64,000 bases of DNA from Planctomycetota bacterium (GCA_003136555.1 PLEW01000233.1:6067-70066); one strand, 5' to 3'; counted from the first letter of the stretch, positions 5,261 through 35,530 are shown. The notes: a model not told the origin generated them from the sequence alone. A program made the numbers and translations.

Positions 5261-6490
5261 ATGTACCGCAAACCCATTCCAACATCGGCCCACGATCGTC
5301 AGCAGCGCGAGCACGCACCCCATGTGCACGCCGAACCAGCCGCGGTGCCTGCGGCCGCACTGGACTATCAGCAGATCCAGGCGCTCGCAGCCCGCCCGGC
5401 GACGCCGACCATCTCCTTATATTTGCCGACGCACCGGGCCGGCAGCGACAAGAAGCAAGACCATACCCTGCTCAAGAACCTCATCCAGGAGGCGCGCCGT
5501 CAGGCGGATGGGACGATGAGCGCGCCAGGCGCAGATGCCCTGATCGCACCATTGAACCGCTTGGTCAACGAGCCCGGCTTCTGGGCGCATCCGCTCGATA
5601 GCCTTGCGGTGTTCAGCAGCGCCACCGGCATGACCCATGCCTGGCTGCCAGCGCCGGTGCCTGCGCTGGCTAGCTTCAGCGAGCACTGCCACCTCAAGCC
5701 GATCATTCCCCTGATCCAAAACGACGGCCGCTTCTATGTCCTCTCGCTGACGCAGCATGGTGTCCACCTCTATCGCGGCACCCGCCATGCCCTGACCATG
5801 ATCGAGCTGCCCAATACCCCGGCATCGATCGAGGAGGCGCTCGGCGAGCCGGTCCAGGAGCGCCACACCGAAGTACGCACCGTACAGGGCGGTGGACAGG
5901 GGTCGACTCGGTATTTCGGCACGGTGGGCGATGAGCAGGCCAAGGGCCGCATCCGGCACTATTTCCGGATCATCGACGGGACGGTTAGCCGCCTGCTGCA
6001 TGCCGAGCACGCCCCGCTGGTCATCGCCGGGGTCGAATTCCTCCTGCCGCTCTACCGCAGCGTCAACAGCTATCCGCACCTTGATCCTGCTGGGATCGGC
6101 GAGCACACCGACCCCCAGGCGCTCGGTGCCCTGCATCAGCGAGCCTGGTCGATCGTCGCCCCGCATTATACGGTGCCGGCGCTGAAGGCTGGTGAGCGGA
6201 TCGCCCAGCTCCTGGGCACCCCGCGCGCCTCGACCGACCTCGCGACCATCCTGCCAGCGCTGATCCAGGGACGGGTCGAGGACCTCTTCGTCGCCAGCGA
6301 TGCCGATCGCTGGGGCACCTATGATGCCAGAAACGACGTCGTGCGTGAGCACCATCCGCGCTGGGCGACCGATGATGATCTTCTCAATCTCGCGCTGATC
6401 CACGCCCTTGCGACGCGGGCTCTGGTCCAAGTCGTGCCCCGCGGCGACATTCCTGGTGGCCACGACATCGCTGCGGTATTCCGCTTCTGA
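5261..6490 (+). CDS. eRF1-like protein (bacterial archaeo-eukaryotic release factor, baeRF-type)
   Basis: AGGAG ribosome-binding site. TISLYLPTHR near the N-terminus, a central FYVLSLTQHGVHLY block, and a C-terminal ...GGHDIAAVFRF tail. These match my recollection of baeRF-family proteins. No search was run. Confidence 0.55.
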   Translation: MYRKPIPTSAHDRQQREHAPHVHAEPAAVPAAALDYQQIQALAARPATPTISLYLPTHRAGSDKKQDHTLLKNLIQEARRQADGTMSAPGADALIAPLNRLVNEPGFWAHPLDSLAVFSSATGMTHAWLPAPVPALASFSEHCHLKPIIPLIQNDGRFYVLSLTQHGVHLYRGTRHALTMIELPNTPASIEEALGEPVQERHTEVRTVQGGGQGSTRYFGTVGDEQAKGRIRHYFRIIDGTVSRLLHAEHAPLVIAGVEFLLPLYRSVNSYPHLDPAGIGEHTDPQALGALHQRAWSIVAPHYTVPALKAGERIAQLLGTPRASTDLATILPALIQGRVEDLFVASDADRWGTYDARNDVVREHHPRWATDDDLLNLALIHALATRALVQVVPRGDIPGGHDIAAVFRF

Positions 6491-13077: not shown

Positions 13078-15567
13078 TCACCCCTGGGTGCCGAGCGGGG
13101 CCAATGGGGGCACTAGCGGGAGCGCTTGCGCAGGCGTCGACCGGTCTGGAGTGCTGGCGAGGAAATAGCGCCCGGCCGAGGCCATGGCCACGGCGGTGAT
13201 CGAACTGAGCGGCATCGCCACCGCACAGAGGTAGGGGCCCCAGACACCCATCATCGCCAGGACGATTCCGGCAGCATTATAGACCAGCGAGATGGCGAGG
13301 ATGAGGCGAACCTGGGCATTGGCAGCGGCGCAGCCGGCAAGCAGCTCCTGCAGCCCCTGCCAGGCGTCATTGCGGGCCACGAACACCTGGCAGCTGGCGA
13401 TCGCTGCCTCGACTCCGCCGCGTAGGCCGATGGCGAGATCGGCACGGGCGAGGGCGGCGGCATCGTTGACGCCATCTCCGATGACAGCGACCGCCCCCGA
13501 GCGGTGGAGCATGGTGACCAGGTCGGCCTTGTCCTCTGGCGCCATGCCGCCATGGATCTCCTCGGTGGAGAAGCCGAGCTCCGCTCCGACCGCATGCGCT
13601 ACGCGTGGATCATCGCCCGAGCAGAGATGGGTGGAGATGCCGGCCGCGCGCAGCTGGGTGAGCAGCGCCGCGGCTCCCGGGCGGATGGGATCGGTACAGG
13701 CGATGTGCGCCAGCACGACACCGTCGAGGGTGACGGCGATCACCGTGTCCTCAGGCCCATCGAGCCGCATGGCACCGCACTCGACCCCGGTGAGGCGCTG
13801 ATTGCCGATGCACAGCACGCCCCGTTCGGTCTGGCAGCGCAGTCCCTGACCGGGGATCTCAGACCACTCGGTGATCGGGAGCACGGCGGATAGTCCCAGC
13901 TCAGTGCTGATGGCGAGAGCGAGCGGATGCTGCGAACGGGCTTCGGCGGCGGCCACCGCCATGCGCCCCCACTCCTGCAGCGCGGCGTCGCCGCTTTGCC
14001 ACTGCCAGGCGACCACCCGCAGGCGGCCCTCAGTAAGCGTGCCGGTCTTGTCGAAGACCAGATGGCGGATGTTACCGCCACCCGCACGCATGCCGCCGAG
14101 GGCTTCCAGCGCACCGGCATCGCGCACCAGGATGCCGCGTACCGCTGCGCGTGAGACCGCCAGGGCCTGGACCAGGGGTGTCGCCAAGCCGAGGGCGCAC
14201 GGGCAGCTGACCAGCACCAGGGCGATGGCGCGCTCGAGGCCGCGAACTCCACCGCCCGGACCACCAGTGAGCCAGGATACCAGGATGGTGCCCAAGGCAG
14301 CTGCGGTCACCGAGAGGATGAAGATGGTCTGCAAGCGGTCGGCGATGCGGATCAGGGCGGTTGGGCGGGAGGCCGCATCCCCGATGGCGCTCAGCACCCG
14401 GCCCATGCGGGTCGCAGCACCGGTCGCGCCCACCTGCAGGCAGAGATGGTCGGCGAGGCAGGTGGTACCTGCGAAGACGATGTCGCCAGGGACCAGCTGC
14501 ACCGGCCGCGATTCGCCGCTGAGGGCGGCGGCATCGATGCTCGCCGGCGCATCCTGCAACAGGCCATCGCAGGGGACGACCTCGCCGTTGAGCACCTCGA
14601 CGCGATCCCCTGGGCGCAGCTCCGCGGTCTGGACGTTCTCGGTTCTGCCGGACGGCCCTGTGCGCCGAGCCACCAGCGGCATTAGGTGGTCCAGCGCCTC
14701 GGTCGCATTGGCGACCCGGCTGCCGGCGGCCAGCACCGCTACCCTGCCGGCGAGCAGCAGGGCGACGAACATGGTCACGGCATCGAAGTACAGTTCGCGC
14801 GACCCCTGCAGCAGGTTGACGATGCTGGCCACCACCCCGACCAGGATCACCAGGGTGGCGCTGACATCCATGGTCAGCCGGCCATGGCGGAGCGCCGTGA
14901 TGGCGGCGCGGTAGAAGGGTGCCGCCCCGTAGGTCAGTCCCGGGACCGCCAAGCCGAAGGCGCACAGACCGAACATCCGGGTGGCGCTCGGGTCGAGATC
15001 GCGGGTCATCTCGCCGGCATAGAGGTTGAGCGAGAGGTGCATCGCCCCCAGCGCGGAGGCGGAGGCGATCGCCAGGCGGATCAGCAGATGGCGGCGTTCA
15101 TCACGACGATGGGTGCTGGCCTGGGCGAACGGCTTGGCGCGGTAGCCGAGCGACCCCAGCAGGCGCACCTGTGCGGCGGGAGAGCTGTGCGTCGGGTCGA
15201 AGACCACGGTCAGCCGCCCGGTGGCGATGCTGACGCGGGCGCAGCGCACCCCATGGTCGATCCGGGGCAGCTGCTCGAGCAGCCAGACGCAGGCGGCGCA
15301 GTGCATGCCCACCACATGCCAGCGGACCTCGCTCAGGCCATCCTTCCGGCCGACTACCACCGCAGCGAGGGCGTCGCGCTCGGCGCTCACATCGGCGCTC
15401 GGTGTGGTGATGCGCTCTGCCGATTGTCCGCGCAGGCGGTAGAAGTCGCTCAGTCCACAGGCGTTGATCACCGCATGCGCCGCCTGGCAGCCCGGACAGC
15501 AGAAGTCCTGGTCGGCCGGGGCGAGGGAGGTGGCGCAGTGCTGGCAGAGACGGGCGCTCTCAGGCAT
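13078..15567 (-). CDS. ccoI: Heavy-metal (Cu) translocating P1B-type ATPase, CcoI/FixI-like
   Basis: N-terminal CQHC...CCPGCQ metal-binding domain, membrane CPC (VSCPCALGLATP), DKTGTLT phosphorylation site and GDGVNDAAAL hinge. Adjacent and divergent to the cbb3 operon. Confidence 0.88.
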   Translation of the reverse strand: MPESARLCQHCATSLAPADQDFCCPGCQAAHAVINACGLSDFYRLRGQSAERITTPSADVSAERDALAAVVVGRKDGLSEVRWHVVGMHCAACVWLLEQLPRIDHGVRCARVSIATGRLTVVFDPTHSSPAAQVRLLGSLGYRAKPFAQASTHRRDERRHLLIRLAIASASALGAMHLSLNLYAGEMTRDLDPSATRMFGLCAFGLAVPGLTYGAAPFYRAAITALRHGRLTMDVSATLVILVGVVASIVNLLQGSRELYFDAVTMFVALLLAGRVAVLAAGSRVANATEALDHLMPLVARRTGPSGRTENVQTAELRPGDRVEVLNGEVVPCDGLLQDAPASIDAAALSGESRPVQLVPGDIVFAGTTCLADHLCLQVGATGAATRMGRVLSAIGDAASRPTALIRIADRLQTIFILSVTAAALGTILVSWLTGGPGGGVRGLERAIALVLVSCPCALGLATPLVQALAVSRAAVRGILVRDAGALEALGGMRAGGGNIRHLVFDKTGTLTEGRLRVVAWQWQSGDAALQEWGRMAVAAAEARSQHPLALAISTELGLSAVLPITEWSEIPGQGLRCQTERGVLCIGNQRLTGVECGAMRLDGPEDTVIAVTLDGVVLAHIACTDPIRPGAAALLTQLRAAGISTHLCSGDDPRVAHAVGAELGFSTEEIHGGMAPEDKADLVTMLHRSGAVAVIGDGVNDAAALARADLAIGLRGGVEAAIASCQVFVARNDAWQGLQELLAGCAAANAQVRLILAISLVYNAAGIVLAMMGVWGPYLCAVAMPLSSITAVAMASAGRYFLASTPDRSTPAQALPLVPPLAPLGTQG

Positions 15568-15570
15568 GAG

Positions 15571-16332
15571 TCACACCGGGCTCAGGTGATGGCAGCACGC
15601 CGCCGCGCTCCGGCTGATGGCCATGAAGAGGATCCATGCGCCGCTGAAGGCGAGCGAGGCCGAGGGCAGCCAGCGTCCGCACCAGGTGCGCAGCCCTCCG
15701 CGCCACCGGCTGGCGACGGCGGTGATGGCGGTGGAGGCGGCCAGGGCCGGCGTGGTCATCGCTACCAGGATCACCATCACCAGCGCGCCCTGCAGCGGGT
15801 CGGCGCTGGCCGCAGCGAGGCCGAGCGCCCACAGCACGATGCCGCAGGGGAGGAACGCCATCGCCGCGCCCAGCGCGGCGGCAGCGAACACCGGCCGGCG
15901 GGCGAGGCGCGCCGGCAGCGCGCGCAGCAGCAGGGCAGCGACCGGGGTGGACGAGCCCGTGCGGCTGATCAGGCGAGCGAGGCTGGCGGGATGGCCGAGC
16001 TTGACCAGCGCGGCGATGAAGAATGCCGCCGCCAGGGCGATGCCCAGCCACAGCTCGCCACCATGCAGATCCTTGGCGATGCCAGCTCCGGTCCAGCCCG
16101 CTGCCGCGCCCAGCAGGGCGTAGACGGCGGCGCGTACGAACTGATAAGCGCCGAGCTGGCTGATCACCGTGCGCGTGGAGGGGGGATCGCCGGGAGCGAG
16201 GGCGCCAAGCCTGCCGATGCGCAGTCCCACGACCAGCGGACCGCACATGCCGGCGCAGTGGACCGAGGTCCAGGCCAGGCCGAGGCCGAGCACCAGGCCG
16301 GCGGCCTGCCAGGTCAGCTGCGGATCGCTCAT
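15571..16332 (-). CDS. DsbD_2/TauE-like polytopic membrane protein
   Basis: HCAGMCGPL motif in the first TM segment, with about 6-7 hydrophobic segments. Its stop lies 3 nt upstream of the ccoI start, so the same operon. Antisense ORFs 14686..16377 and 15560..16348 are judged shadows. Confidence 0.7.
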   Translation of the reverse strand: MSDPQLTWQAAGLVLGLGLAWTSVHCAGMCGPLVVGLRIGRLGALAPGDPPSTRTVISQLGAYQFVRAAVYALLGAAAGWTGAGIAKDLHGGELWLGIALAAAFFIAALVKLGHPASLARLISRTGSSTPVAALLLRALPARLARRPVFAAAALGAAMAFLPCGIVLWALGLAAASADPLQGALVMVILVAMTTPALAASTAITAVASRWRGGLRTWCGRWLPSASLAFSGAWILFMAISRSAAACCHHLSPV

Positions 16333-26713: not shown

Positions 26714-27041
26714 CCAGCGCCAGGTGGTGGCTGGTGCGCCCGTCCAGCCTTGGTGAGCCGCCGCCGCTCACGAGGTTGGCAAGCGGTTCAGGCGTGATGC
26801 CGAATCATGGCGGTGCCGTCGCCGAGCGTCTGGGAAGTGAGCCCATCTGCACGCAGTCTGGGTCTGGAAATCCAGATCTCGACCACCTGCTCGTGCCACA
26901 CTATCGGCAGCTGGAGCAGATCGGCCGCAGGGTCGGCTACCCGGAGGCGCGGCTATGCTCAACCGTCGCCGACGTCGCGCCGGGAACCTGGACGGGGCAC
27001 ATAGTGGCTCTCGATTCGCGTGAAACTGGCAGCACCTCGGT

Positions 27042-27080
27042 TTCCAGAATGGAAACACAACCATTGTTTCCATTCTGGAA
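27042..27080. promoter_or_regulatory. Perfect 16-bp inverted repeat (TTCCAGAATGGAAACA-N7-TGTTTCCATTCTGGAA), candidate higBA operator
   Basis: Read directly from the sequence. Ends 17 nt upstream of higB ATG 27097. Confidence 0.6.
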
Positions 27081-27096
27081 GCATTTATCATCGATC

Positions 27097-27405
27097 ATGC
27101 AGCTCATGAGTCTCGGAACCCTGCGAACCTTCCGGGAAGCCAATGAGCGGGCACGGCAGGAGCTTGTGCAATGGTCGAAGATCGTCCGTAAGGCTACGTG
27201 GCGGAATTTCCATGATGTTCGCAAGGATCTTCGCAGCGCCGACAACCTCACTGGTGGTTGGATCTGCTTCAACATCCGGCGCAATGAATTCCGCCTCATC
27301 GTCCTCATGGTGTACGATGTCAAGATGGTCCTCGTGAAGTTCATTGGATCGCATGCCCAGTACGATCTCCTGCTCACAAACCCGAAATGGAAGAAAGCCC
27401 TATGA
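27097..27405 (+). CDS. higB: Type II toxin HigB (RelE/ParE superfamily)
   Basis: C-terminal part of ORF 26710..27405. LRTFREANERARQELVQWSKIVRKATWRNFHDVRKDLRSAD...CFNIRRNEFRLIV...KFIGSHAQYD matches the HigB_toxin pattern. Visibly lower GC than the flanks. Confidence 0.85.
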   Translation: MQLMSLGTLRTFREANERARQELVQWSKIVRKATWRNFHDVRKDLRSADNLTGGWICFNIRRNEFRLIVLMVYDVKMVLVKFIGSHAQYDLLLTNPKWKKAL

Positions 27406-27794
27406 GTCCGACCCGCCCCATTCGATCAGTACGTGAATATGAGCGCGCCCAGAAGCGCGTTGCCGAACTCGTCGCGCTAGGCGTCAAGAAGGGCTCTCCA
27501 CAAGGGGATGAACTCGAAATGCTCGGACTGCTCATAACCGCATTTGACGATGAGCATCATCCCCTTGGCCCGACGGATCCAGTGGCCGCCATCGAATTTC
27601 AGATGAACCAACGTGGTCTGACGCGCAGAGACCTGGAACCCTTCATTGGCAATCGCGCACGGGTGTCCGATATACTCAACCGCCGTCGTGGCCTGACCCT
27701 GTCCATGATCCGGCGCCTTCACGCTGGCCTGCGCATACCGCTCCAGTCTCTGATTGAGACCGAGACCGACGTCGGCTCAGCGGCGGTCCACTAG
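27387..27794 (+). CDS. higA: Type II antitoxin HigA (XRE-type HTH)
   Basis: PIRSVREYERAQKRVAELV...GDELEMLGLLITAFDDEHHP...DPVAAIEFQMNQRGLTRRDLEPFIGNRARVSDILNRRRGLTLSMIRRLH. The alternative start ATG 27402 forms an ATGA overlap with the higB stop. Confidence 0.85.
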   Translation: MEESPMSPTRPIRSVREYERAQKRVAELVALGVKKGSPQGDELEMLGLLITAFDDEHHPLGPTDPVAAIEFQMNQRGLTRRDLEPFIGNRARVSDILNRRRGLTLSMIRRLHAGLRIPLQSLIETETDVGSAAVH

Positions 27795-27854
27795 TCCCAA
27801 CGCGAGAACGAGGCACCCCAGGCGGAGTCCTCATCACGGCATGCGGTGGTTGAG

Positions 27855-28430
27855 CTACTTGCCGGCTGGCAGCGCGCCGTAGGCCTTGGCCAGGATCTCC
27901 AGGCCGGCCCGGGAGAACGACACGTCATCCTCCGATTTCGCTCCGGAGAAGGCGGCCAGCACATAGCCCCCGGGGACCTGCTGGATGACGCCGCCCTTGT
28001 AGCCATTCTCGCCCTTCAGCGACGGCCTGACACCGCTGCCGCTGTCCTTCAGGGTGTCGGCCATCTCCGCGGCCTTGGTGTAGACGATGCCGAGTACATT
28101 GGTGTTGTTCTTGCTGAATGAGCCGACCACCAGCATGCGCGATGCCCACGATCTGGTCGCCTCGCCCGGGATGTAGGCGACGATGGCGGCGCCGTTGGCA
28201 TTGATCGCCCCGGCATGCTGCTTCATCGCCTCAAGAGCATCGCTGGCGACCTGGTCGAAGTCCACCCCGCCAGCGTGCGCCGGGCTCGGGGAAGGTGACG
28301 ATTCCGTCTCGCATGCGACCAGGAGCAGGCACAGGCAGGGGAGGACGCAGCGGAGCAAGATGGTAGCGATGGGGCACCTCGATGAGGGTTCTAGCGGCAT
28401 CCACCTGCTCGGCAATACGGCGTCGGGCAT
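27855..28430 (-). CDS. GlcG/HbpS-like (DUF336) putative heme-binding lipoprotein
   Basis: Lipobox LLLVAC. C-terminal GGVIQQVPGGYVLAAFSGAKSEDDVSFSRAGLE resembles the GlcG/DUF336 core. The start shares 1 nt with the upstream RR stop (TGATG). Confidence 0.6.
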   Translation of the reverse strand: MPDAVLPSRWMPLEPSSRCPIATILLRCVLPCLCLLLVACETESSPSPSPAHAGGVDFDQVASDALEAMKQHAGAINANGAAIVAYIPGEATRSWASRMLVVGSFSKNNTNVLGIVYTKAAEMADTLKDSGSGVRPSLKGENGYKGGVIQQVPGGYVLAAFSGAKSEDDVSFSRAGLEILAKAYGALPAGK

Positions 28431-29641
28431 CAGGAATCACGTTGGAAGGTGAGGATGTCATCCACCCAGGCGCTCGGCACGGCGCTGGGAGCCTGCGCAC
28501 GGGCGTCCACCGGCAGGGTGACGGTGAACCCGGGCCCTGCGGGGCCCTGCGGGTGGACATCCACCTGACCGCCATGGTGGTGGGCGATGAAGGTCGCCGA
28601 CAGCAGTCGTGCCGGGTGCGGCTGCACCCCGCCAGCGAAGCTGAGGGTGGCATACAGCCCCGCATGCTGTGCCGGCGTCCAAGGCGCGCCGCCGGTGCGC
28701 ACAGTGACCGCGACGCTCCGCTGGCCCTGGAGCGGCGGGCCGTCAGCGACCCGGATATCCAGCCGCGGCGCCGCCGGGTCCACCGCCAGCGCCTCCGCCG
28801 CCAGCAGGGCGAAGAGGCGCGCGACCAGATGGCCATCGCTGGTGATCGCCGTCACCGTGGTCTGGAGCTCGACCGCCACCGCTGCCGGTCCGTGCGCGCC
28901 GGCGAGCGCGCGCGCCGGCGCGAGCAGATCACCGAGCGGCTGGACGGTGAAGCGCGGAGCATCGGCCGCGACATCGCGGCTGATGGCCTGCGTCAAGTCG
29001 ACCAGTCGTCGGCTCTCTGCCTGGACGCGGGCATAGGGATCGCCGCCATCGAGCGAGGGAGAACCACCGTCCCCGCCAGGTGCAGGCGCCTGCTCGATGT
29101 AGGATTTCAGCGCCGTGAGGGTGTTCTGCAGGCGCGGCGTCAGGCCTGCGGCGAGGACCGCGAACGCGCGCACGCGGTCCAGCATCACCAGGGTCTGCAG
29201 GGTCGAGAGCTTCTCGCGCAGCAGGCTGTCGCGTTCGCGGGCGATGATGTGCCACTCCATCGCATGCATCAGGATGCCGACCAGCTCGCGGGCGTTCCAG
29301 GGCTTGACCACATAGCGGTAGATCTCGCCGGAATTGACCGAGGCGATGGCGCTGTCGATGTCGGTGTAGGCGGTGGTGAGGATGCGCACCACGCGCGGAT
29401 AGGCGCTGCGCACCCAGGTCAGCAGGTCGACGCCGCTCTCGCCCGGCATGCGCTGGTCGGTGATCAGCACGCCGATCGAGTCCCCCTGCGCGGCGAAGAT
29501 CGCGCGCGCCTCGCGGGCGGAATTCGCGGTCAGGCAGCGGAAATCTTTGAACAGGATGGGGAAGTACTTGAGCGCCTGCTCCTCGTCGTCGACATACAAC
29601 ACGGAGAACTTCTTCACATCAGGGGTGCTCATGGGGCTCAT
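28430..29641 (-). CDS. Response regulator with degenerate histidine-kinase-like output domain (PhcR-like)
   Basis: Trimmed from ORF 28430..30607 to ATG 29641 (ATGA overlap with the HK stop). Receiver VLYVDDEE...VLITDQRMPG...VVKPW. Output AAGLTPRLQNTLTAL aligns with an H-box but has Pro in place of His. C-terminal IAHHHGGQVDVHPQGPAGPGFTVTLP resembles a G2/ATP-lid remnant. Confidence 0.8.
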   Translation of the reverse strand: MSPMSTPDVKKFSVLYVDDEEQALKYFPILFKDFRCLTANSAREARAIFAAQGDSIGVLITDQRMPGESGVDLLTWVRSAYPRVVRILTTAYTDIDSAIASVNSGEIYRYVVKPWNARELVGILMHAMEWHIIARERDSLLREKLSTLQTLVMLDRVRAFAVLAAGLTPRLQNTLTALKSYIEQAPAPGGDGGSPSLDGGDPYARVQAESRRLVDLTQAISRDVAADAPRFTVQPLGDLLAPARALAGAHGPAAVAVELQTTVTAITSDGHLVARLFALLAAEALAVDPAAPRLDIRVADGPPLQGQRSVAVTVRTGGAPWTPAQHAGLYATLSFAGGVQPHPARLLSATFIAHHHGGQVDVHPQGPAGPGFTVTLPVDARAQAPSAVPSAWVDDILTFQRDS

Positions 29642-32259
29642 TCCTTGGTGGCTTGCGGCCGGCCGCTGTTGGGACGCGGGAGGTGTATGGAGAATTCCGT
29701 CCAGTGGTGGTGTTCGCTGCGCACAGCGATGGTGCCGCCGTGGTTGGCGATGATGGTATGGCAGATGCTCAGCCCGAGCCCAGTCCCCTGGCCGACGGTG
29801 CGGGTGGTGAAGAAGGGCTCGAAGATCCGCGGTATGACCTCCGCAGCGATGCCGCAGCCGTTGTCCCGCACCAAGATGGTGGTACCGGCGCCATCCTGCT
29901 GCGCGGTTATCGCTATCGTCGGCTGGCGATCGGCCGCATCCTTCAGCGCCTTGCTCGAATTGATGAGCATGTTCATGAAGACATGGCTCAGCTGCGTCTG
30001 CGAACCCTGCACCAGCAGGCCGGAGGGGACCTGGCGTTCCACCTGGACGGTGCGCAGCTCGAAGGCCACCAGCCGCAGTGACGATTCGATCACCGCGCCC
30101 AGATCGACGATGTCGTTCTCGCGTCCGCTCGACTTGTAGGCGAACATGCTCAGGTCGCTGACGATGGTCTTGATGCGCGCCATGCCCTGGCCGATGTCGT
30201 CGAAGATCTCCTTCAGGCTGGCATCGCCCGGGGGGATGCAGCCATAGGCGACCTGCAGGGCGGTGAGGGTGAAGTTCAGGGGATTGTTCACCTCGTGCAT
30301 CAATCCGGCCGCCACCGTCCCCAGGGCGCTCATCTTCTCGCTCTGGACCAGCTGCGACTCGGTGGCCTTGAGCCGCGCAAGCGTCTGTTCCAGCTCGGTG
30401 GCGCGTTCGAGCTCCGAACGCTGCAGATCGGCGGTGCGCAGCAGGTTGGCGACCCGGGTCTGGATCTCGAGGATCGAGAACGGCTTGGTCAGGAAGTCGT
30501 CGGCGCCGTTCTCCAGCGCGGTGATCTTCGAGGCCTCGTCCATGCGGGCGGTCAGCAGGATGATCTTGGTCCTCGCCATGCTCGCATGCCCGCGCAGGGT
30601 GCGGCACACCTGGATGCCATCCATGCCCGGCAGCATGAGGTCGAGGAGGATGAGATCGGGAATGCGCTCGAGCGCCAGGGCGACCGCGCGTTCTCCATGG
30701 TCCGACTGCAGGATGCGGTAGCGGTCTGCCAGGCGCGAGGCGATGAAGCGCCGCATGTCCGGCTCGTCATCCACCACCAGCACCGTATGCGTGCCGGCAC
30801 CGGCATGCTGGCCCTCGACGTCGCTGCCCTCGTCCAGGGTCACGCCGCCGCGCCGTTCGGCGCTGCGGTAGATCTCGCTCACCACATCGTCCTCGTGCTC
30901 CTCGGAGGTGCGAGCGGGTGGCTGCAGCTGGCGCAGCGCGTCGACGGAATGCAGTGGCAGCGCCACCGTCATGGTTGTGCCGCGGCCGAGCGTGCTGTGC
31001 GGGGTGATCACCCCGCCATGCTCCTCGACCAGCTCCTTCACCAGCGCCAAGCCGATGCCCACGCCCTGGAACTTCCTGGTCGACGAGCCGTCGACCTGGT
31101 GGAAGCGGCTGAAGAGGTTCGCCATCTCGCTTTCCGGGATGCCGATGCCATTGTCCTCGATCTCGATGAGTGCGCGCTCGGCGCTGCGGCGCGTGCGGAT
31201 GGCGATGGTGCCGCCGCGCGGGGTGAACTTGATCGCATTGGTCAGGAGGTTGAGGACGATCTTCTCAAGGCGCGAGGGATCGGCATCGACCGGCAGCGCC
31301 TCGGTCGGGGCGCTGCATTCCAGGGTCAGGCCCTTGGCATCGGCGAGATAGCGGATGGTCTCGGCGATGCCGATGGCGAACGGCGCGGCATCGAACACCT
31401 CCTTGCGGATGGCGATGCCCTTGTCCTCCAGGCGCACCAGTTCGAGCAGGTCGTTGATCAGCTTGAGCAGGCGCAGGGCGTTCTGGCGGGCAATGCCGAG
31501 CGCCTCGGCGGTGGTATCGCTGAGCTGATGGCCCCGGCGCAGGAGGTCCTCGATGGGAGCGATGATCAGGGTCAGCGGGGTGCGCAGCTCATGGCTGACA
31601 TTGGCGAAGAACTGGCTGCGCAGGCGATCCATCTCCGCGAGCTTGGCATAGGAGCCGGCCAGTTCGTGGTTGCGGCTGTCGAGCTCATCGCGCAGGCGGA
31701 AGTCCTCATACTGTCTACGCGCGGAGAAATGGCAGCCGATGGTGCAGATGATCGCGGTCAGGGTGATGAAGAACAGGTTGTTGAGCAGGTAGTGGGTATC
31801 GATCGGGGTCGGATTGCCGAGGCAGGCGAGCAGATAGCAGACGAGGATGGCGATGCAGCAGCAGATCGCCTCGAAGGTGGTCCAGCTGAAGAGCGTGCAG
31901 ACGCCCATGTTGACCAGCAGCAGGCCGGTATAATAGGGCGAACGGGAACCTTCCGTCTCGTAGATCAGCCAGGACATCGCCACGATCGGCACCATGACCC
32001 AGGCGAAGCCCAGGACCTTGATCCAACGCAGCCCGAAGGGCAGGAAATGGCAGGCGAGGATCACCGCCAGGACAGCATCGAACACCAGACGACCGACCAG
32101 GAAGGTCCAGAAGTGCGTCGGATACACCACCAGGTCCAGCAGCGAACCGGCGGGGATGAGGGCCAGGGCGATGATCGCACCGGCAACCGACAGGCGCATG
32201 CGCAGGGCACGGCTGGCAACGGCATAGCGCGCCTGGAGCGGCGCTTCCGCGGTCGTCAT
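29638..32259 (-). CDS. Membrane hybrid sensor kinase: about 6 TM + HisKA/HATPase + receiver + second HisKA/HATPase
   Basis: Hydrophobic N-terminal 200 aa. First H-box FFANVSHELRTPL with DNGIGIP/GVGIGLALV. Receiver VLVVDDEPD...LILLDLMLPGMDG...TKPF. Second H-box AAGLMHEVNNPL with DNGCGIA/GTGLGLSI. Confidence 0.9.
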   Translation of the reverse strand: MTTAEAPLQARYAVASRALRMRLSVAGAIIALALIPAGSLLDLVVYPTHFWTFLVGRLVFDAVLAVILACHFLPFGLRWIKVLGFAWVMVPIVAMSWLIYETEGSRSPYYTGLLLVNMGVCTLFSWTTFEAICCCIAILVCYLLACLGNPTPIDTHYLLNNLFFITLTAIICTIGCHFSARRQYEDFRLRDELDSRNHELAGSYAKLAEMDRLRSQFFANVSHELRTPLTLIIAPIEDLLRRGHQLSDTTAEALGIARQNALRLLKLINDLLELVRLEDKGIAIRKEVFDAAPFAIGIAETIRYLADAKGLTLECSAPTEALPVDADPSRLEKIVLNLLTNAIKFTPRGGTIAIRTRRSAERALIEIEDNGIGIPESEMANLFSRFHQVDGSSTRKFQGVGIGLALVKELVEEHGGVITPHSTLGRGTTMTVALPLHSVDALRQLQPPARTSEEHEDDVVSEIYRSAERRGGVTLDEGSDVEGQHAGAGTHTVLVVDDEPDMRRFIASRLADRYRILQSDHGERAVALALERIPDLILLDLMLPGMDGIQVCRTLRGHASMARTKIILLTARMDEASKITALENGADDFLTKPFSILEIQTRVANLLRTADLQRSELERATELEQTLARLKATESQLVQSEKMSALGTVAAGLMHEVNNPLNFTLTALQVAYGCIPPGDASLKEIFDDIGQGMARIKTIVSDLSMFAYKSSGRENDIVDLGAVIESSLRLVAFELRTVQVERQVPSGLLVQGSQTQLSHVFMNMLINSSKALKDAADRQPTIAITAQQDGAGTTILVRDNGCGIAAEVIPRIFEPFFTTRTVGQGTGLGLSICHTIIANHGGTIAVRSEHHHWTEFSIHLPRPNSGRPQATKE

Positions 32260-33686
32260 GCGGAACCCGGCTTGGTTATCTCGAGGAAGATGTTCACTCC
32301 GGTCTGGTCGCGGACGGTGCGCGCCGGCACATCGCCCGGGGCGAGCGACAGCATCTGGGCGTCATTGCGGTGGTAGAGGTGCCATTCCAGGAGGTGCTCC
32401 ATGTACAGGCGGTTGGGATTGTCGCTGTGGACATTGGTCACCAGCACCATGCCGCCGGGACGGGTCATGTGGGTGAATAGCCGCACCAGGCGCTGGCAGA
32501 TCTTGTCGGAGAGGTAATCAAACAGCCCGGCGCAGTAGACCAGGTCATAGCTCGGCAGCGCGCGCTGGCTGTCGAAGCGGCTCGAGGTCTCCTTGAGCAG
32601 GTCATGGATGGATTTCAGGATGGTGGTGATCGATACCGTGGTCTTCGCATCCCTAGCCACGCCTTCGATCATGGCAGTGGCATACTTCAGGGTCTCGGCA
32701 TTGAAGTCGAGCAGGGTGAATTCGCAGGATGCCACCAGGGGATCCTTGGCGAATTGCTGGATTTCGGCCGCCGGTCCGCAGGCGATGTTGAGCACCCGCA
32801 GCTTCTGCCCGCGTGCGCTGGCGGCGCTGGCGCTCTGCCTGAGGTAGGCGACCAGCATCGCGATGCGGTTGCGGTGGGCGGTGGCGGCGGCGCCGTTGAG
32901 GTTGAGCAGATTGAGGATGCGGGCGTAGGTGTTGGGACCCTTGATGGGATCGGTCAGGATCATGTTGACCATCTCATAGTCGCCGGCATATCCCAGGGGC
33001 TTTGTGAAGGTGCGGTGGAGGAAGGGCGAGCACAGGATGAGCGGATGGATCTCGCGCCGGGCATAGGATTTGTGGATGTTGACCGCATCCGGCGCGACGT
33101 CCTGCGCCGCCGCCTCGAACCCCTTCATCAACTCCCAGATCTTCCCGCCGACGCCATTCATCACATCGTGGACGAAGTTCCGCTTGGCTGAATCGGGCGT
33201 CGCCGGATCGGAGATGCCCGCCAGGGCCTCTCCTTGACCGAGCCAGCGGCTGAGCTCCTCGAGGAAATTGCGGAAGCGATTGACGATCGAGAGGTAGGAC
33301 GGCAGCAGCCGCCCCTGGGTCTGCTCCCAGTCGTTGACGAACACCGAGACCTCGGAGACGATCTCATCGCTGAGCTTGAGAGTGCGTTTCGATGACCAGT
33401 CGTCCACCAGCGTGGCCGAGACGATGAGCATCAACCCGGTGTTGACGAGATTGCTGACCACGGCCTTGCCGGCATAGACCGTGCGATCGCCCCGGCTGAT
33501 GCGCAGCTCATTGAGGACCTCGCTCAACTGCACGATCGAATACGGATTGTAGACCTCGAAGACGGCCATCTGCTGGGTGACGCTCATCAACGTTCCACGG
33601 CATTCAACCCCGCTCGAATTCCTGAACACCAGGAGACTTTCACCGAAGTCATCGCGCTGATCGCTCCCTTTGCTGACGGTACTCAC
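32256..33686 (-). CDS. SAM-dependent methyltransferase with N-terminal beta-rich domain (PhcB-like architecture)
   Basis: GTG start at 33686 with GAGGA upstream. Class I MTase motifs VLNIACGPAAE and DLVYCAGLFDYLSD. 476 aa. ATGA overlap with the downstream HK. Confidence 0.75.
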   Translation of the reverse strand: MSTVSKGSDQRDDFGESLLVFRNSSGVECRGTLMSVTQQMAVFEVYNPYSIVQLSEVLNELRISRGDRTVYAGKAVVSNLVNTGLMLIVSATLVDDWSSKRTLKLSDEIVSEVSVFVNDWEQTQGRLLPSYLSIVNRFRNFLEELSRWLGQGEALAGISDPATPDSAKRNFVHDVMNGVGGKIWELMKGFEAAAQDVAPDAVNIHKSYARREIHPLILCSPFLHRTFTKPLGYAGDYEMVNMILTDPIKGPNTYARILNLLNLNGAAATAHRNRIAMLVAYLRQSASAASARGQKLRVLNIACGPAAEIQQFAKDPLVASCEFTLLDFNAETLKYATAMIEGVARDAKTTVSITTILKSIHDLLKETSSRFDSQRALPSYDLVYCAGLFDYLSDKICQRLVRLFTHMTRPGGMVLVTNVHSDNPNRLYMEHLLEWHLYHRNDAQMLSLAPGDVPARTVRDQTGVNIFLEITKPGSA

Positions 33687-34729
33687 GGGATGATGTCCTC
33701 GCTAAACATGGTGATGGCCTCGCAGAGAGACGCAGGACAGGCGGGCATTGAGATCACCGTGCGCGGTGGGCGCCGGAGCTGGAGGGCTCGTGCGCCCACC
33801 GTGCAGGGACACGATGGCGATTGGCACTCATACCAGGTGCCGGCGCAACTATTTCCATAATAGCGCCGCGGCATCCTGATCGCAAAGTTGGTATTGGCCT
33901 GCTCGCAGTGGTGAGCCGGACCTGGAGACGGTCTCGACGGCATCTCGCGGGATCGTCCAGGTGGAATCCGACTGGTGTGCGTCGTGCGTGTCACGTCAGC
34001 GAGCCCACCCATGGGATCAGGTGCGACGCAAGAGAGGACACATCCACACCATCACCCACCGCAGTCTCCCTGTGTGGATGTCCAGACATGGCGTCGGTCG
34101 GCATGAGGGTCTGCGCATCAGCGTGCGGAACCTGCTGCCGATGAAGTGGGAGGTCAGGTGGATGTGCAGCAAGTGGATCACCGTCGACCACCCATCACAT
34201 CGTCGCGATCGTGGCACAGCGACGGTGACACGGGCGTGGTATCGGGTCGCTGCTTGGCATCTCCATGGTGTGTCCTCCAGGTCGTCAGCCATCGACGGTG
34301 AACCGGAATGCCATTCAATGACCGAGCATTGGCAGCATGGGGTGCTGCTCAGGCGCGAATTGTCCACCCCGATCCTGTTCTGTAAATATGAATAATATAT
34401 GCACTTATGATGTTATTTGTGGCAATGCCTCCGGCAGCCAGATCCCGGTGGCCGAGATCGGTCCAGGGCCAGACCCCGGTCTGGCGAGCGCACCACGCGC
34501 GTGATCCCACCCGCTACGTATGGGGATCAGGTGGCGGTGCCATCCGGGCCGGAGCATTGCAGCGCCGGTCAGCGGTCGATTCTCAACATCCGACTCCGAC
34601 GCGCAATGTACTCGTCTTTCGGTGGGATGCCGCCTCCGCACATGCAGTGCCATGGGGGTTGGTGGCCGCGGATGAGGCGGACGGCTGCGGGGTCACGAGT
34701 CCTGGTCAGGGGGTGGGTTACACCGTCTG

Positions 34730-35530
34730 ATGCCGAATGCATATCGGGGTTCTGCGATCATCCAGGTCCGGCAGCCTACCACCATGCCATCCGCACGCTC
34801 CCCGTCACGCCTGCAGCGCACCGAGCCTGTGATCCCGCCCGCGGCGCCATCGCTGCGCATCCCCTGGTCGCTGCTCGGGCCCTATGACCATGCGACCGCC
34901 TGGCGCGGGCGGCGTTGGCATCGCCTGCAGCCGCTCGACCGGAGGCGGCCGTGTCCGCCGACCCGCGTCAGTCTGCTTGCAGCCGCCGACGGCCTGCATG
35001 CGCGCTTCATCTGCACGTCCCGACGGATTACGGCAGAAATGCGCGACGATGGCGCTCCGCTCTATCTCCAGGATGTGGTCGAGCTCTTCGCCTGGCCATC
35101 GCCGGGCGATGTCCGTGCCGCGCGTTACCTCGAACATGAGGTCTCTCCGGCCGGCAGCTGCCTGACGCTCATCATCGCCAGCGACGGACGGCCGCGTGCC
35201 CGCTGGACGCCTTGGGGGCTGGCGCCGGCCGATCGGCCCCGCCAGCGGGTGACCATACGTCGGCAGCACGGCAGGGTGTGCGGATGGGATGTCGATGTCG
35301 TGTTGCCGTGGACGCTGTTCACCGGTCTCGGAGTCGTCCCACCGGTAGCGGGGAGCTGCTGGCGGGGCAACCTGACCCGCATCGACCACGCTCAGGGAGG
35401 GGAGCGCTTTGCCGCTTGGAGTCTCCCGCCAGTGGTCGATTTCCACCGGCTGGATGCCTTGGGCGAGTGGTGCTTCGAGGCTCCTCCGTCGGCTCCACGC
35501 ACCCGCCGGCGCAGCAAAAGCGGTCGCTGA
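34730..35530 (+). CDS. CBM9-like/DOMON-like carbohydrate-binding domain protein
   Basis: WRGNLTRIDHAQGGERFAAWSLPPVVDFHRLDALGEWCFE resembles the C-terminal signature of CBM9-like domains. The start is uncertain (34730 or ATG 34784) and the N-terminus is Arg/Pro-rich. Confidence 0.45.
   Translation: MPNAYRGSAIIQVRQPTTMPSARSPSRLQRTEPVIPPAAPSLRIPWSLLGPYDHATAWRGRRWHRLQPLDRRRPCPPTRVSLLAAADGLHARFICTSRRITAEMRDDGAPLYLQDVVELFAWPSPGDVRAARYLEHEVSPAGSCLTLIIASDGRPRARWTPWGLAPADRPRQRVTIRRQHGRVCGWDVDVVLPWTLFTGLGVVPPVAGSCWRGNLTRIDHAQGGERFAAWSLPPVVDFHRLDALGEWCFEAPPSAPRTRRRSKSGR

Follow-up and report, generated by a model that had tools for sequence, protein, structure and literature searches.

In the literature, phc signalling is regarded as peculiar to Ralstonia and closely related bacteria, where it controls virulence through methyl esters of 3-hydroxy fatty acids. 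The methyltransferase PhcB makes methyl 3-hydroxymyristate, this ester is sensed by the histidine kinase PhcS, for which His230 is needed, and the regulators PhcR and PhcQ have no DNA-binding domains (PMC8578825, PMC11960443, PMC13320629). PhcQ binds PhcA (PMC13320629). No paper placing phc systems outside the Burkholderiaceae was found in the literature searched. Here we analyzed a locus of a bog planctomycete, contained in a 64,000-nucleotide stretch of Planctomycetota DNA (GCA_003136555.1, PLEW01000233.1:6067-70066), the whole of which is called the window below. Listing of open reading frames (ORFs) revealed four consecutive ones on the minus strand at 27855-33686, encoding proteins of 476, 873, 403, and 191 amino acids (aa). 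We consider it fairly probable that the locus is a planctomycete synthase-receptor-regulator operon of the phc family, which would enable the synthesis and sensing of a lipid methyl-ester-type signal by a two-tier phosphorelay. The four genes are the following:

32256-33686, minus strand: gene 1, PhcB-family S-adenosylmethionine (SAM)-dependent methyltransferase, putative signal synthase, 476 aa, GTG start
29638-32259, minus strand: gene 2, long PhcS-type receptor, 873 aa, consisting of a membrane sensor, a first histidine kinase (HK1), a receiver (REC), and a second histidine kinase (HK2)
28430-29641, minus strand: gene 3, PhcQ-type response regulator, 403 aa, with a REC domain (Asp62) and a degenerate kinase-like C-terminal domain
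27855-28430, minus strand: gene 4, exported lipoprotein with the predicted GlcG/HbpS/EfgA (DUF336) fold, 191 aa

In a BLASTP comparison, the product of gene 1 was 45% identical to the PhcB of a Burkholderiaceae phc operon (locus L079) over residues 16-471, aligned with PhcB residues 8-461 (E 1.7e-138). This alignment takes in all three parts of the protein, from the N-terminal beta domain through the helical domain to the class I SAM domain. Locus L079, which serves here as the reference phc operon, has gene lengths of 463, 453, 377, and 333 aa, in agreement with the published lengths of PhcB (464-468 aa), PhcR (368-374 aa), and PhcQ (336-337 aa) (PMC8578825). The PhcB and PhcS proteins of L079, titled Ralstonia pickettii RAL3, are 98-99% identical to those of L059, titled Cupriavidus necator EM36, and one of these two organism names is probably wrong. 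Pfam returned for gene 1 only weak generic matches to Methyltransf_31/25/12 (residues 295-424, best E about 1e-6), and the NCBIfam matches were likewise generic methyltransferases only; gene 1 is thus closer to PhcB over its full length than to generic class I enzymes. The following domains were delimited:

33408-33635, minus strand: N-terminal beta-rich domain of gene 1, residues 18-93, six strands, specific to the PhcB family and aligned with the PhcB N-terminus
32274-32801, minus strand: class I Rossmann methyltransferase domain of gene 1, residues 296-471, with motif I VLNIACGPAAE

An earlier sequence-only reading of this DNA had recognized in gene 1 class I SAM-methyltransferase motifs behind a beta-rich N-terminal domain. 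Both motifs that it quoted, VLNIACGPAAE and DLVYCAGLFDYL, are indeed present in the translation, and the proposed domain coincides with the six strands that align to the PhcB N-terminus. An AlphaFold model (predicted local distance difference test, pLDDT, 87) placed these strands at residues 18-93, followed by a helical domain at 107-291 and the Rossmann domain at 296-471. Since the full-length PhcB homology includes the N-terminal domain, the assignment holds, and gene 1 is classified on its sequence as a full-length PhcB-family methyltransferase. Arg30 of gene 1 aligns with Arg22 of PhcB, so that the arginine is kept; in strain GMI1000, the R22C substitution in PhcB is an adaptive mutation that alters quorum-sensing dynamics (PMC6989110). 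Among solved structures, the sequence search gave no match to gene 1, and Foldseek gave only generic small-molecule O-/C-methyltransferases and entry 3ocj; by both searches, there is no solved PhcB structure. A PilZ-like nature of the N-terminal beta domain, which would have linked it to cyclic di-GMP, was considered and dropped, as ten diverse N-terminal domains gave no PilZ match in Pfam at E<=5.

Homologs of gene 1 are numerous. The search found more than 4,789, with lengths of about 465-480 aa, and many carry a JGI name that we take to be the KEGG description of PhcB. A search with the PhcB-specific first 290 residues alone yielded 961 clusters at 50% identity, mostly of 460-500 aa. A full-length homolog with 43.5% identity, encoded on a plasmid of Paraburkholderia graminis, then served as the query for Burkholderiales loci. 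The next plasmid-borne methyltransferase family is 25-29% identical to gene 1, and only in the C-terminal 60%. A sister family of class I methyltransferases of about 347 aa matches gene 1 residues 172-473 and has no beta domain. Three of its loci were inspected, on plasmids of Rhizobium and Roseateles, and in each the methyltransferase gene adjoins a divergent GGDEF/EAL gene:

L172, 2794-3837: sister-family locus beside a GGDEF/EAL gene
L173, 2791-3837: sister-family locus beside a GGDEF/EAL gene
L174, 2704-3741: sister-family locus beside a GGDEF/EAL gene

Gene 2 encodes the receptor, in which four regions were distinguished:

31660-32259, minus strand: polytopic membrane sensor of the MASE8 type, residues 1-200, homologous to the PhcS sensor
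30925-31659, minus strand: HK1, first kinase core, residues 201-445, H-box SHELRTPL with His223, absent from Ralstonia-type PhcS
30424-30807, minus strand: internal receiver, residues 485-612, Asp540, with the DD, D, T, and K residues present
29641-30423, minus strand: HK2, second kinase core, residues 613-873, H-box HEVNNP with His655, counterpart of the PhcS kinase

Pfam identified HisKA at 214-279, HATPase at 327-437, REC at 493-603 (E 3e-25), and a second HATPase at 755-859. In a domain-wise BLAST, the sensor was 27.8% identical to PhcS residues 11-205 over 198 aa (E 9.5e-18). HK2 was 45% identical to PhcS residues 208-451 (E 3e-68) and has the same HEVNNP H-box, whereas HK1 was only 28% identical to the PhcS kinase. 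Identity of HK2 to PhcR was also 28%, and HK2 groups with PhcS. The hydrophobic segments of gene 2 lie within residues 18-180, and the sensor is nearly all in the membrane, with very short loops. The MASE8 label comes from precomputed Pfam matches of an identical protein for region 1-200; the local Pfam search reported MASE8 for neither gene 2 nor PhcS. According to the translation and the alignments, the catalytic motifs of HK1 (including the N, G1, and G2 boxes), the internal receiver, and HK2 are all intact. His655 of HK2 is equivalent to PhcS His230, the essential autophosphorylation site in strain OE1-1 (PMC11960443).

In Ralstonia-type PhcS, of about 445 aa, the sensor is joined directly to one kinase core. 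Gene 2, with 873 aa, departs from this layout; its greater size is due to an inserted HK1-REC module (residues 201-612), which separates the sensor from the PhcS-type core. Judged by domain homology, gene 2 is thus a PhcS with an HK-REC stage between sensor and kinase. The sequence-only reading had noted the much larger size correctly; its description of a polytopic-membrane hybrid histidine kinase stands for the membrane-bound kinase with a receiver, and the second HATPase-containing kinase had not been listed. A fusion of PhcS and PhcR was considered as the origin of gene 2 and rejected, since it is HK2 (45% identity) and not HK1 (28%) that corresponds to the PhcS kinase, and the receiver inside gene 2 shares only 29% identity with that of PhcR.

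The regulator encoded by gene 3 carries a REC domain at residues 14-122 (Pfam) with all phospho-acceptor residues present. BLASTP aligned it with PhcQ over residues 13-225 (38% identity, E 7e-43), whereas the match to PhcR was restricted to the receiver (E 1e-28), and an identical protein bears the JGI name "probable response regulator PhcQ." Hence, the earlier assignment of gene 3 as the counterpart of PhcR was not borne out, and gene 3 is placed by sequence comparison in the PhcQ position, not the PhcR position. Profile comparison by hhalign showed how its C-terminal part is related: the gene 3 family aligned with PhcR over the full length (columns 4-378 versus 1-367, E 5.7e-42), with PhcQ through column 212 only (E 5.5e-49), and with the PhcS kinase region at a probability of 94.9. 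The C-terminal halves of gene 3 and PhcQ are alignable for the first ~80 aa only. In the alignment of the kinase-like domain, proline takes the place of the H-box histidine, and degeneration extends to the N, G1, and G2 boxes. The C-terminal 270 residues had no Pfam match, and no DNA-binding Pfam domain was found in the protein. Nine homologs of gene 3 were found in a word-indexed search, one of which, from Verrucomicrobia, still scores as HATPase_c. With these motifs lost, the C-terminal domain is classed as a pseudokinase. The proposal that gene 3 joins a receiver to a kinase-like output therefore holds for the layout, given the full-length alignment to PhcR, but the catalytic histidine and the N, G1, and G2 boxes are lost. 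No separate PhcR gene with REC and an intact kinase was found: a single regulator gene follows gene 2. Gene 2 does contain a REC-HK2 unit, but its kinase belongs to the PhcS group and not to that of PhcR.

The three genes are conserved as a unit. The Burkholderiales comparison comprised the best 80 loci by PhcB homology, none titled R. solanacearum, and the order PhcB-PhcS-PhcR-PhcQ was found in 72 of them. Eighty further loci were taken from metagenomes (41-52% identity), and in 65 a sensor-type kinase directly follows the PhcB homolog. The long double-kinase receptor is present in 43 of these 65 (28 complete, 12 cut by contig ends, 2 split in two genes, and 1 with HK2 as a separate ORF). The short type, with a kinase of about 445 aa followed by REC-HK (~400 aa) and REC-X (~335 aa) proteins corresponding to PhcS, PhcR, and PhcQ, accounts for 21, and in one locus the sensor segment alone was recognized. 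The long form thus outnumbers the short form by about 2:1 in the metagenome sample. In L110 (8392-11109) and L160 (1444-3986), the receptor is split into sensor-HK1 and REC-HK2 genes. Five long-type loci (L102, L112, L114, L123, and L134) have two regulators of about 360-400 aa and a third receiver protein of 300-368 aa, not a single PhcQ-type gene. Three distant loci of the planctomycete type encode the methyltransferase, a MASE8 HK-REC-HK kinase of about 870 aa, and a REC protein of about 408 aa, and the fourth gene differs in each; with the nearest relative counted in, the regulators are of roughly 400-420 aa. The nearest relative (76% PhcB identity) has the kinase and two regulators, and no lipoprotein; its kinase was masked from gene calling by a 100-N scaffold gap. 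The four-gene order suggested by the sequence-only reading is accordingly conserved for the first three genes only, and the lipoprotein has no counterpart in the other phc-like loci inspected, including that of this relative.

In the PhcB tree, the short-type loci form one clade, which with an outgroup was recovered in 147 of 200 bootstraps. In the full-data outgroup tree, the long and short types are reciprocal clades, while among the outgroup bootstraps the short type was nested in the long type in 136 of 200 and the long type was monophyletic in 60 of 200. A derivation of the short type inside the long type, seen in a midpoint-rooted neighbor-joining tree, was considered, and no ancestry is claimed, as the outgroup tree and the bootstraps split on the root.

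The homology of all parts, their domain order, the catalytic residues kept or lost, and the conserved three-gene unit allow a circuit to be outlined. What gene 1 makes and whether this compound diffuses, which way the phosphoryl groups move, and how the circuit takes effect are inferred as follows. Gene 1 would most likely methylate a lipid acid at its carboxyl group (a 3-hydroxy fatty acid, by analogy), giving a membrane-permeant methyl ester. The polytopic sensor of gene 2 would detect this ester within the membrane and would drive HK1 (His223) first, not the PhcS-type kinase directly. HK1 would phosphorylate the internal receiver at Asp540, which would gate HK2 (His655), and HK2 would in turn phosphorylate the gene 3 receiver at Asp62. 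A two-tier relay is implied because an intact HK1 and receiver lie between the sensor and the PhcS-type kinase. It is also supported by the split receptors of L110 and L160, in which the sensor could reach HK2 only via the receiver or protein contact. Finally, gene 3 would probably exert its effect by binding a partner protein, in the way that PhcQ contacts PhcA in Ralstonia, since it combines the absence of a DNA-binding domain with a dead kinase-like domain.

Several points weigh against this circuit. The PhcB reference L079 represents a Burkholderiaceae phc operon and not the experimentally studied one of R. solanacearum. An identity of 45% is too low to predict the substrate or chain length, and the product may be something other than a 3-hydroxy fatty acid ester and may stay inside the cell. 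Instead of gating HK2, the internal receiver could serve as a phosphate sink. No PhcA-like LysR regulator was found within ~10 kb, and the precomputed Pfam lists for 22256-43686 contain no LysR family; phcA is unlinked in Ralstonia too. No report of quorum sensing in Planctomycetota was found in the literature searched, and a 2025 review of this phylum has no mention of quorum sensing or cell-to-cell signalling.

Alternatively, the methyltransferase could modify an internal or envelope lipid metabolite and the kinase could monitor its pool, in which case the module would respond to the lipid or envelope condition of the cell itself and not to cell density. Such a role is unlikely, though it deserves some weight: a membrane-embedded sensor with very short loops suits the sensing of membrane lipids as well as that of a diffusible ester, there is no evidence of product release, and the GGDEF/EAL neighbors of the ~347-aa sister methyltransferases suggest a coupling of methyltransferases to intracellular signalling. 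However, a secreted autoinducer is what the family members studied so far, and no others, are known to make (PMC8578825), and a tight linkage of synthase and receptor, seen here over hundreds of loci, is the usual signature of a signal-receptor pair. A diffusible methyl ester sensed through the two-tier relay remains the preferred interpretation of genes 1-3.

The lipoprotein encoded by gene 4 contains one hydrophobic segment (residues 21-39) followed by the lipobox LVAC, whose cysteine is conserved in the nearest relatives. The protein had no match in Pfam (to E<=10) or NCBIfam (to 0.01) and no meaningful sequence match in PDB. A model built with 40 homologs reached a pLDDT of 84, and >90 over the domain. 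In a Foldseek search with this model, the top 23 PDB matches were all members of the DUF336 family (E 2.5e-4 to 3.5e-2): EfgA, a putative extracellular heme-binding protein, NahX, HbpS, ORFY, the C-terminal domain of PduO, and Ybr137w. For the best entries (6bws, 4nkp, 9jth, 3fpv, 2a2l, and 5cx7), the target-normalized template modelling score was 0.56-0.70, and for Ybr137w 0.44-0.48, at about 17% identity in structural alignments. The alpha/beta fold of DUF336/GlcG, of ~140 residues, is present in the model, and the predicted structure thus confirms the GlcG/HbpS/EfgA (DUF336) fold of gene 4. The earlier description as a GlcG/DUF336 lipoprotein is right as to fold and lipobox, and no match to the sequence profile of the family was found. 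At least 419 clusters of "hypothetical" exported proteins make up the gene 4 family, with named examples from Acidobacteriota.

Gene 4 is probably co-transcribed with the operon. A tblastn search found no gene 4 homolog beside the operon in any of ~165 other loci (~80 Burkholderiales, 80 metagenome, and 4 of the planctomycete type); over all fetched loci, it detected only this organism's own contigs and two unrelated contexts. In the contexts inspected, no homolog elsewhere stands beside two-component genes. In L091 (6001-11868), a cytochrome c assembly gene and hemA, hemC, and hemD follow ~1.4 kb downstream of a distant homolog, a faint hint of a heme connection for the gene 4 family. The same population is represented in another sample by contig L004, which is otherwise identical here; at 5480-5516 (window 28338-28360), a 23-bp frameshifting deletion affects the part encoding the signal peptide, and represents either a real loss-of-function variant or an assembly artefact. 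Gene 4 is best regarded as an add-on of this lineage that lies outside the core circuit. The heme or redox input that had been proposed as a feature of the system is not supported as such because the linkage of gene 4 is confined to this organism, and none of the other phc-like loci inspected has the lipoprotein.

The lipoprotein might nevertheless be an accessory sensor on the outer side of the cytoplasmic membrane, where it would modulate the kinase upon binding of heme, iron, or a reactive aldehyde, as HbpS does with its partners SenS/SenR; EfgA, which shares the fold, is a formaldehyde sensor. The fold matches to HbpS, the putative extracellular heme-binding protein, and EfgA are in line with this role, as are the predicted export and lipid anchor, the start of gene 4 overlapping or lying <=30 nt from the regulator stop, and the one distant homolog near heme-biosynthesis genes. 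This role is nonetheless quite improbable, since gene 4 homologs are missing from all other phc-like loci, including that of the nearest relative, and those elsewhere do not adjoin two-component systems, the population includes a variant with the frameshifting deletion, and the kinase offers almost no extracytoplasmic surface for contact. A chance adjacency of a generic class I methyltransferase and an ordinary two-component system without any relation to phc, to which the purely generic Pfam and NCBIfam matches of gene 1 might point, has a negligible probability and is already refuted by the full-length PhcB homology, the domain-specific PhcS and PhcQ homology, and the recurrence of the gene order in all locus classes examined.

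The gene boundaries were also inspected. The four minus-strand genes had been described as overlapping, and all three junctions were read from the sequence accordingly (ATGA at 32256-32259, ATGA at 29638-29641, and TGATG at 28428-28432). Overlaps of stop and start codons are frequent in operons and unremarkable alone. Public gene calls on identical metagenome contigs place the start of gene 3 at an ATG at 29632, preceded by AAGGA 9 nt upstream and giving 400 aa, and one stored public sequence of gene 4 has 181 aa; even with these later starts, the intergenic gaps are <=30 nt. The G+C content of the operon region (0.61-0.68) is like that of the rest of the window.

The exact sequence of gene 1 occurs on 28 JGI metagenome contigs of up to ~112 kb. 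According to precomputed Pfam data for identical contigs, the flanking genes encode PSCyt/PSD and DUF1501-type (Pfam HXXSHH) domains, which we take to be typical of Planctomycetota, and every one of the closest gene 1 homologs with an NCBI organism name is from Planctomycetota or Pirellulaceae. Upstream of the operon lies the following region:

33687-34729, no strand: gene-free region of ~1.05 kb that the operon shares with the divergent gene upstream of it, presumably with promoter or regulatory function

It contains an AT-rich patch at about 34375-34420, in a genome of ~65% G+C. Rfam gave no match across 27000-35500, and the promoter and terminator scans remained at chance level, with two weak sigma-70-like matches in the gene-free region, no more than expected. 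On the plus strand at 27097-27794, a HigB-type toxin gene and a gene for a 130-aa partner converge on the 3' end of the operon (precomputed Pfam, identical contig); to judge from these matches, they are probably a toxin-antitoxin pair. Elsewhere in the window, a 2-kb block at 14001-16000 has a G+C content of 0.716 and an AT skew of 0.17, versus a window average of ~0.65 G+C.

Automatic annotation already labels such proteins PhcB and PhcQ. What is new is the double-kinase receptor of this phc-family module, and its presence in a phylum for which no such signalling has been described. With its relatives, the locus reveals a widespread synthase-receptor-regulator unit (961 clusters at 50% identity in the PhcB-specific region), which suggests that phc signalling extends well past the plant pathogens from which it has been described, and provides a concrete candidate system by which cells of Planctomycetota could signal to each other. 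As a natural experiment, these loci also show two designs of such a receptor, in which the same pair of sensor and kinase is coupled either directly, as in the Ralstonia type, or via a kinase-receiver stage, sometimes split over two genes. Gene 4, for its part, points to the at least 419 clusters of exported DUF336-fold proteins missed by current Pfam and NCBIfam models. More tentatively, it is possible that the phc system of Ralstonia is one streamlined branch of a larger cross-phylum family of methyltransferase-made lipid-ester signals in which the two-tier receptor is the commoner form, that Planctomycetota communicate in this way, and that the present lineage recruited a GlcG/HbpS-fold lipoprotein as a second extracytoplasmic input.

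Among the known systems, HbpS-SenS-SenR of Streptomyces reticuli and the DUF336/GlcG family (EfgA, the PduO C-terminal domain, and NahX) share with the locus the fold of gene 4, its export, and the two-component neighbor. Unlike them, gene 4 matches no Pfam profile (E<=10), it stands beside a two-component system in one lineage only, and the conserved genetic linkage of the HbpS kind was not found for it. Hybrid and tandem histidine kinases (LvrA; EspA/EspC-type) have the same HisKA-HATPase-REC order as gene 2, for which LvrA was the best NCBIfam match (E 4.7e-95, residues 187-609, 319 bits versus a model cut-off of 1,200); this match is generic and covers neither the sensor nor the second kinase. 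In CqsA/CqsS and LqsA/LqsS/LqsR, the synthase of a lipid-derived autoinducer is encoded beside a kinase sensing the ligand in a polytopic membrane domain. The planctomycete locus shares only this logic with them: the proteins are unrelated, and the CqsA/LqsA synthase is an aminotransferase-like enzyme, not a methyltransferase. The Ralstonia-type phcBSRQ operon differs in lacking the extra HK-REC module in the receptor (~445 versus 873 aa) and in having a separate PhcR gene. Further differences are the planctomycete host, the added lipoprotein, and the regulator, which here keeps a kinase-like domain that is recognizable though dead; no linked PhcA was seen. The two operons share a PhcB methyltransferase of similar length and three-domain build in the first position, then a kinase with a like membrane sensor and a HEVNNP-type core, and then a PhcQ-type receiver protein without a DNA-binding domain, the three proteins being homologous with E-values from 1e-17 to 1e-138.

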